From NCBI RefSeq assembly GCF_003334765.1, contig NZ_QOWT01000021.1: 64,000 nt of DNA; one strand, written 5' to 3'. The stretch is from Escherichia coli (GTDB lineage: Bacteria; Pseudomonadota; Gammaproteobacteria; Enterobacterales; Enterobacteriaceae). Both the position numbers and the translations under genes were made by a program. Every line of letters begins with the position of its first letter. Position 1 is the first letter of the stretch. Below are positions 49,871 to 50,120 of this stretch, in pieces. The notes under the pieces were generated by a model. That model saw only the letters and a program-made list of their open reading frames with translations, was not told where the DNA came from and ran no database searches.

Positions 49871-50120
49871 TAGGCCGGATAAGGCGTTCACGCCGCATCC
49901 GGCATCCGAGCACCATTGCCTGATGCGACGCTTACCCGTCTTATCAGGCCTACAAACTTGTGCCTGAACCGTAGGCCGGATAAGGCGTTTACGCCGCATC
50001 CGGCATCCGAGCACCATTGCCTGATGCGACGCTTACGCGTCTTATCAGGCCTACAAACCTGTGCCTGAACCGTAGGCCGGATAAGGCGTTTACGCCGCAT
50101 CCGGCAGTCATGCGTCGATG
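49871..50120. repeat. BIME array: two complete ~100-bp tandem units plus a partial third, each made of inverted REP copies
   Basis: Unit GTAGGCCGGATAAGGCGTT(C/T)ACGCCGCATCCGGCATCCGAGCACCATTGCCTGATGCGACGCTTAC(C/G)CGTCTTATCAGGCCTACAAAC(T/C)TGTGCCTGAACC repeated at about 49871 and 49971, partial at about 50071. Confidence 0.92.

Follow-up and report, generated by a model that had tools for sequence, protein, structure and literature searches.

A tandem BIME array of strain-variable length between the convergent ybaQ and copA genes of Escherichia coli

The window analyzed here is a stretch of 64,000 nucleotides in which the genes ybaQ and copA face each other across an intergenic region of 315 nt. 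Within this region lies a series of palindromic units, the first beginning 22 nt past the ybaQ stop codon and the last ending 56 nt short of that of copA. The 701 nt around the series (49650-50350) are 100% identical to E. coli K-12 derivatives; the window itself is E. coli K-12, with the array occupying the gap between ybaQ and copA. Exact string mapping of 49506-50200 gives offsets of +458712 to MG1655 (NC_000913.3) and +457936 to W3110 (NC_007779.1), which puts ybaQ at MG1655 508218-508559 and copA from 508875 onward. An earlier note on this DNA had placed a tandem BIME array between the 3' ends of these two convergent genes; both flanking genes are as it described them, identical to those of MG1655, and the element is indeed a tandem BIME at this position. 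The current RefSeq record of MG1655 carries no repeat_region feature at the array. The features of the locus, in window coordinates, are as follows.

49506-49847, plus strand: ybaQ coding sequence, HigA-family antitoxin / DNA-binding regulator (ORF list, RefSeq annotation of MG1655 and W3110, exact mapping)
49848-49869, unstranded: unique left flank, 22 nt, from the ybaQ stop codon TAA (49845-49847) to the first palindromic unit
49870-49904, plus strand: unit 1, type Y, GTAG foot at the 5' end; one mismatch to the published Y (C at 49889, in the loop); hairpin of -20.9 kcal/mol; first hairpin of the RF02564 match
49905-49916, unstranded: S-type linker, 12 nt, TCCGAGCACCAT, joining Y to Z2, with a sequence specific to the ybaQ-copA locus
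49917-49953, plus strand: unit 2, type Z2, CTAC at the 3' end; four mismatches to the published Z2; second hairpin of the Rfam match, 79.9 bits
49954-49970, unstranded: linker, 17 nt, AAACTTGTGCCTGAACC, between the CTAC and GTAG feet; s/l/r class
49971-50005, plus strand: unit 3, type Y, no mismatch to the published Y
50006-50017, unstranded: second S linker, 12 nt, identical to the first (49905-49916)
50018-50054, plus strand: unit 4, type Z2, three mismatches to the published Z2 and of equal length; Rfam match of 89.3 bits
50055-50071, unstranded: second 17-nt linker, sequence AAACCTGTGCCTGAACC
50072-50106, plus strand: unit 5, type Y, no mismatch to the published Y; the truncated third unit of the earlier note
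50107-50162, minus strand: unique right flank, 56 nt, between the last unit and the copA stop codon
50163-52667, minus strand: copA coding sequence, Cu+-exporting P-type ATPase, 834 aa (ORF list, RefSeq MG1655), convergent with ybaQ

Tandem Repeats Finder reports a single array at 49869-50106, with a period of 101, 2.4 copies, 97% matches, no indels and a score of 455. A repeat search resolves this into two full copies of 101 nt each (49869-49969 and 49970-50070), which are 97% identical, and a third copy that stays in register for its first 36 nt only (50071-50106). Self-comparison of 49800-50200 gives 58% matches at a lag of 101 against at most 36% at every other lag, which bears out the tandem periodicity that had been read from the letters. 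The description of two near-identical units plus a truncated third also stands, with the period corrected from about 100 bp to 101; the span given for the array, 49871-50120, runs 14 nt into the unique flank, since the true end is at 50106. Exactly 3 differences separate the two full units (C/T at unit position 21, C/G at 68 and T/C at 90, counted from 49869), and these are the same three positions that were listed before as 20, 67 and 89, counted from 49870. One lies in the loop of Y, one at the upper end of the Z2 stem and one in the 17-nt linker, so that all main stems remain unbroken.

REP and BIME elements have been known since the 1980s. The units here were assigned to types by comparison with three REP sequences, Y, Z1 and Z2, which Durrant et al. 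2024 (PMC11208160) give in their methods. The layout is Y-Z2-Y-Z2-Y, five imperfect palindromes of 35-37 nt in which, on the plus strand, the Y units carry a 5' GTAG foot and the Z2 units a 3' CTAC foot. Y is joined to Z2 by the 12-nt TCCGAGCACCAT and Z2 to the next Y by the 17-nt AAACYTGTGCCTGAACC, and together these parts make up the 101-bp unit. Units 2 and 4 equal Z2 in length and have much lower alignment scores to Z1; in unit 2, the C at 49936 weakens the top of the stem. As is characteristic of REP sequences, a GTAG or CTAC foot is found in 5 of 5 units, and the bulged hairpins into which the units fold have energies of -17.5 to -21.9 kcal/mol, whichever strand is taken. The RNA fold of the region is far more stable than shuffled controls (z = -8.0 on the plus strand and -7.8 on the minus strand). 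No part of the array reaches into ybaQ or copA, and the sequences in it are dispersed and of high copy number: the 701-nt query matches a median of at least 32 places per genome across all 5,426 genomes searched, and two further REP clusters occur within the 64-kb window.

The family to which these features point is BIME-2, a group of E. coli clusters of REP sequences (palindromic units) described by Gilson, Bachellier and Hofnung and summarized in PMC3333891. BIME-2 elements consist of y + z2 with a short S linker, and they occur in tandem, the copies at any one locus being conserved in sequence and differing in number from strain to strain (PMC3333891). At ybaQ-copA, Y and Z2 alternate in inverse orientation, the S linker is 12 nt, the tandem units are 97% identical and their number differs between strains. 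The match of all five units to the published Y and Z2 sequences, which was the test set for identity, makes it almost certain that the array is a BIME-2. It shares with the family the inverse Y/Z2 alternation, the S linker, the tandem arrangement, the extragenic position at 3' ends, linkers common within the locus and a variable number of units, and there is no essential difference; at 3-4 positions, the upper Z2 stem and its loop depart from the quoted Z2 consensus, reading TTACC/TTACG in the array against TGGCG.

We compared the locus across 5,426 complete E. coli genomes, reading two samples taken at even steps down the ranking together with representative loci. The allele shares below are rough estimates from the sampled rows, and RefSeq is a biased sample of the species.

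0 units, 57 nt intergenic: NRG857C, ATCC 25922; about 23% of sampled rows, ybaQ present
1 unit (Y), 113 nt: C5, LY180, O111; about 22% of sampled rows
3 units, 214 nt: D9, O157:H7; about 18-20% of sampled rows
5 units, 315 nt: K-12; about 17-20% of sampled rows
7 units, 416 nt: E. coli B, HS; about 3% of sampled rows
19 units (9.3 repeats), 1022 nt: PCN061; a single row
ybaQ-less or otherwise different, length variable: SCU-109, KK05-19, RMDEC465; about 10% of sampled rows

The expectation that copy number differs between strains is thus confirmed, with alleles of 0, 1, 3, 5, 7 and 19 units. About a third of the sampled genomes have no unit at the site, and because of this the usefulness of the array for strain typing, which the earlier note had also put forward, is plausible but modest. 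A published 101-bp-unit locus for MLVA of E. coli and Shigella, ms32, was considered as a possible identity of the array and rejected: none of the ms06-ms32 primers is found in the window with 2 substitutions allowed.

The filled alleles differ in whole multiples of 101 bp, and flanks and linkers are common to all of them; the left flank is identical in the 1-, 3-, 5-, 7- and 19-unit alleles. Unit 5 (Y) is the sole unit in the single-unit alleles, such as that of strain C5. E. coli B has one additional exact copy of unit 2. The single full unit of strain D9 combines the two K-12 units: it has the C of unit 1 at position 21 and the G and C of unit 2 at 68 and 90, a C-G-C chimera such as a lone crossover between positions 22 and 67 would yield. 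In PCN061, variant units recur four units apart, which indicates duplication of a block. The allele that is free of REP sequences is not a clean empty site: in NRG857C, 19 nt (AATAATTTCCCTATAACGG) stand in place of 75 nt that in C5 hold the single Y and its flanks.

The locus-specific linkers common to all units, the copy of unit 2 in E. coli B, the D9 chimera and the recurrences in PCN061 together make it likely, on comparative sequence grounds, that the array has grown in place. A related array agrees with this. The BIME-2 at yjjV-yjjW (strains B1.H1.18 and S8) also lies between convergent genes and has a 100-101-bp period with the arrangement Y, 12 nt, Z2, 16/17 nt, but its S linker is GTTGGCGCACAA rather than TCCGAGCACCAT, and its Z2 tail, ATCATGCCTAC, contains no exact IS621 target. 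The same spacing with another S linker is what would be expected if linkers are specific to a locus and arrays grow where they are.

We suggest that a REP element was seeded once at this site, probably by the REP-associated Y1 transposase TnpA-REP (RAYT). Published work on the family indicates that binding and cleavage by TnpA-REP require a GTAG foot together with a mismatch in the stem, both of which the array retains, and that the enzyme can cleave and recombine BIMEs in vitro. From there, the array would have gained and lost whole 101-bp units where it stands, whether by unequal recombination between its direct repeats, by slippage on them during replication or by TnpA-REP strand transfer. 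The gene for TnpA-REP (RAYT) is not in the 64-kb window. REPIN/RAYT systems, whose REP doublets are mobilized by a domesticated Y1 transposase, resemble the array in having an inverted REP doublet as the repeat unit and in the GTAG foot and two-base stem mismatch, which the array keeps.

The interval has been listed before. Table DS3 of Sutormin et al. 2019 (PMC6379681) contains the entry "BIMEs2 507807-508042, 235 bp", with 2 gyrase sites under ciprofloxacin (Cfx) and 0 sites with rifampicin plus ciprofloxacin, microcin B17 or oxolinic acid. By the W3110 offset of 457936, this entry is window 49871-50106, and the conversion is validated by two other BIMEs of the window that map equally exactly to DS3 entries. 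The BIME-2 at ybaQ-copA is therefore already catalogued and is an element of an ordinary kind, so that as a discovery it carries little weight: the class is old and the interval stands in published genome-wide tables.

Gyrase cleavage sites are enriched in BIME-2 elements, where Y units and loops are preferred and the sites are independent of transcription (PMC6379681). The two published sites at this locus, 507927 and 507996 (signals of about 7.6 and 6.2), fall at about 49991, in the loop of the Y unit 3, and at about 50060, in the 17-nt linker. Another pair, 508673/508674, would fall in the array if read as MG1655 coordinates; this placement was rejected, since the Topo-Seq tables use W3110-type coordinates, by which the pair lies inside copA. 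As DNA, the array would then act as a weak cleavage site for gyrase that does not depend on transcription. The assertion that these elements bind gyrase accordingly holds as a documented property of BIME-2 but has to be toned down here, where two ciprofloxacin sites contrast with none under the three other conditions.

What the array might do at the ends of the two genes is best considered together with the structures already there. A conserved hairpin at about 50120-50153 in the right flank (-19.9 kcal/mol on the copA strand) follows immediately past the copA stop and is trailed by UUUGG; it is present in every allele inspected, including the REP-free one. The 3' end of copA may have this hairpin as its basic structure, to which the BIME is an optional extra. 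A pattern scan called no intrinsic (Rho-independent) terminator in the intergenic region on either strand, and the copA-side hairpin was likewise uncalled; the REP hairpins have no T-run after them, and the copA-side hairpin has only its UUUGG.

REP325, the source of naRNA1-6 (yjdM-yjdN; RF02564; Qian et al. 2015; Harris et al. 2026 preprint), is built from the same kind of tandem Y-linker-Z2 two-hairpin unit. There, 12 units lie between co-oriented genes of one operon, whereas ybaQ-copA has 5 units between convergent genes, which makes it likely that both strands are transcribed into the array. REP325 is a partial Rho-dependent terminator and an mRNA stabilizer, and where REPs lie between convergent genes, both genes tend to be expressed more highly, but the effects of REPs depend on context and are not uniform (bioRxiv 10.64898/2026.03.23.713779). 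In the supplements of this 2026 preprint, copA appears only in a differential-expression list, where it is not significant, and ybaQ is unmentioned.

By analogy, the convergent ybaQ and copA transcripts would both run into the array and form very stable hairpins without U-tracts, whichever strand is read. In this way the array could hold up 3'-to-5' exonucleases and stop part of the transcription of both genes, probably with the help of Rho. We put forward such a terminating and stabilizing role at this locus tentatively, as a possibility that leans on REP325. The explanation that best covers the locus as a whole, and in which we have considerable confidence, is a BIME-2 that grew in place, has a structural role at the 3' ends, is a weak gyrase site and holds targets for IS621.

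The array is dispensable, because about a third of the sampled genomes have no unit and alleles of 0-19 units coexist; this coexistence also argues that any function of the array is weak or neutral. It could be, then, that the array is selfish or neutral repeat DNA and nothing more, leaving its neighbors unaffected and persisting only because convergent genes tolerate REP hairpins between them and TnpA-REP and slippage keep replacing the units. Presence and absence, and numbers from 0 to 19 units, segregate in E. coli without obvious constraint, and both ybaQ and copA are intact across the allele classes inspected for this comparison. However, the Y units are near-perfect (0-1 mismatch to Y), and stems, GTAG feet and stem mismatches are kept, which indicates recent amplification or purifying constraint, and published genome-wide data tie REPs between convergent genes to higher expression. 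We regard full neutrality as plausible, if rather unlikely, and it overlaps with the explanation of a BIME-2 grown in place, which itself rates any function as weak.

At the other extreme, the length of the array could be a heritable, stepwise setting for ybaQ and copA that is shaped by selection rather than drift. If so, each added Y-Z2 pair would strengthen the two-way transcription stop and the protection of 3' ends and would bring gyrase sites that relieve positive supercoils trapped between the two genes, and the series of 0-19 units would give strains different expression of copA and hence of copper export. We consider this improbable. In any case, the natural allelic series (0, 1, 3, 5, 7 and 19 units plus an IS621 insertion) is material with which the effect of REP number on convergent 3' ends can be tested.

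Another conceivable product of the array is RNA. The Rfam family RF02564, "naRNA4", models one Y-linker-Z2 unit of REP325 (PMC4550694), and both Y-Z2 pairs at ybaQ-copA score above its gathering score of 59.5, with 89.3 and 79.9 bits on the plus strand and 64.0 and 63.6 bits on the minus strand. According to Qian et al. 2015 (PMC4550694), naRNA4 from REP325 binds HU and many REPs are transcribed, and the array might encode small RNAs of this type that bind HU and help to condense the chromosome by bridging cruciform-forming REP DNA. The model is generic for Y-linker-Z2, however: in addition to the opposite strand, it scores above threshold at another Y-Z2 BIME-2 of the window (42735-42812, 74.3 bits), and matches of this distribution identify a repeat family and not an RNA gene. 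A scan found no promoter-like site in the array. Moreover, the 2026 preprint, whose authors include the senior author of the 2015 study, reports no measurable nucleoid compaction by REP325/naRNA4 and detected no REP-REP contacts. A small-RNA gene of this kind is thus quite unlikely here, and an automated Rfam call of "naRNA4 sRNA" at this locus is really a match to the repeat family.

The earlier note had also stated that BIME arrays such as this one bind IHF, which would make the element a BIME-1 (RIB/RIP), with IHF putting a bend between two palindromic units where transcription units end. BIME-1 elements consist of y + z1 with a long L linker that often carries an IHF site, and they occur as single copies (Ton-Hoang et al. 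2012, PMC3333891). The Y units and the location at 3' ends of genes are common to both kinds of element. None of the five units of the array is a Z1, though, and it has no L linker, the distance from Y to Z2 being 12 nt against 34 nt in a BIME-1 of the same window (linker at 31281-31314). Nor does the IHF consensus WATCAANNNNTTR match anywhere in 49848-50162 with 0 or 1 mismatch; the sole match with 2 mismatches is in the left flank. The BIME-1 at 31246-31344 (Y, 34-nt linker, Z1), taken as a control, has an IHF-like site, ATTCAATATATTG, with 1 mismatch in its linker. The two elements of the window thus share a Y unit and a position at the ends of transcription units, whereas the Z1, the IHF-bearing L linker of about 34 nt and the single copy are traits of the BIME-1 that the tandem array at ybaQ-copA does not have (for single copies in the class, PMC3333891). 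Binding of IHF is a property of the BIME-1 L linker (PMC3333891), and its ascription to this class of BIME is the one substantive error of the earlier note; a BIME-1 at this site is very improbable, and the comparison corrects the notion that all BIMEs bind IHF.

That the region encodes proteins, namely an ORF of 134 aa at 49613-50017 and/or one of 88 aa at 49888-50154, both on the minus strand, can be practically dismissed: both frames are open and have start codons, as mechanical ORFs do, but neither is annotated in RefSeq for MG1655, W3110 or the other genomes inspected, their frames and lengths shift from one copy-number allele to the next, 101 not being divisible by 3, the REP-free allele is without the repeat-encoded parts of both, the 134-aa ORF is otherwise antisense to ybaQ, and the peptide text is translated repeat in which one sequence comes twice. 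The verdict that both are artefacts of the repeat is therefore upheld, and annotators are warned off two spurious ORFs.

The 11-nt sequence ATCAGGCCTAC, with a CT core, is a natural target of the bridge-RNA recombinase of IS621 (PMC11208160), and it occurs twice in the K-12 array, at 49943-49953 in unit 2 and at 50044-50054 in unit 4. The array would thus offer two targets to IS621. In strain H6, an IS621 lies inside the second Z2 of the array, inserted exactly at ATCAGGCCT^AC, which shows where the IS621 bridge recombinase lands naturally. Other REARRANGEMENTS at the ybaQ-copA locus comprise, besides the IS621 insertion in H6, the loss or truncation of ybaQ in several strains. With the insertion in H6 and the deletions of ybaQ, the suggestion that the array is a rearrangement hotspot is reasonable. 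The gene is absent or truncated in SCU-109, KK05-19 and RMDEC465, and RMDEC465 retains a Y-Z2-Y array despite the change in ybaQ.

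The ybaQ-copA array differs between strains in both length and integrity. In E. coli PCN061 (NZ_CP006636.1; locus L010, 1873-2896), it has grown to 9.3 units, or 19 palindromic units, within an intergenic region of 1022 nt. Variant units recur four units apart in this array, a pattern that suggests block duplication. In E. coli H6 (NZ_CP010170.1; locus L011), the second Z2 is interrupted by IS621 (2600-4195), inserted at ATCAGGCCT^AC. IS621 is an element of the IS110 family, whose recombinase is guided by a bridge RNA, and its 11-nt natural target is present twice in the K-12 array, at 49943 and 50044.

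An array with the same 101-bp period, in 5.1 copies, lies between yjjV and yjjW in strain B1.H1.18 (locus L012, 401-913). It resembles the ybaQ-copA array in being a BIME-2 between convergent genes, but its S linker is different. The unit of the published MLVA typing locus ms32 is likewise 101 bp, and the ms32 primers were not found in the 64-kb window.

Two further BIMEs are present in the window:

31246-31344, typical BIME-1 (whole element)
31246-31280, + strand, its Y unit
between these two units, its 34-nt linker
31315-31344, - strand, its Z1 unit
42732-42816, one-copy BIME-2 with a single Y-Z2 pair

The linker of the BIME-1 contains an IHF-like site, ATTCAATATATTG, at 31293, and the BIME-2 is matched by Rfam naRNA4 with 74.3 bits. 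These elements correspond to the entries "BIMEs1 489184-489281" and "BIMEs2 500669-500752", respectively, in the supplement of PMC6379681.

On the copA side of the array, a conserved hairpin of -19.9 kcal/mol followed by UUUGG (50120-50153, - strand) lies immediately past the copA stop codon. It was not called by a simple terminator scan. Every allele has it, even the one that lacks REPs, and it could be the 3'-end structure of copA.

On the other side, ybaQ (49506-49847) is annotated as a HigA-family antitoxin. NRG857C carries a frameshifted RelE/ParE-type toxin gene directly upstream of ybaQ (locus L004, 1-121), and K-12 has no toxin gene, so that ybaQ looks like an orphan antitoxin. KK05-19 and RMDEC465 have lost ybaQ by deletion, and SCU-109 lacks it (together loci L007-L009). 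Where ybaQ and the BIME stand elsewhere, SCU-109 has an unrelated G+C-rich segment of 428 nt (L007, 2071-2498) that contains several strong inverted repeats such as GGGGCAGCCCACATGGATGTGGGCTGAGG.

Other Rfam matches in the window fit this K-12 region, as expected:

17744-17840, 4.5S SRP RNA
34644-34708, dnaX frameshift element
48492-48575, sroB/ChiX small RNA
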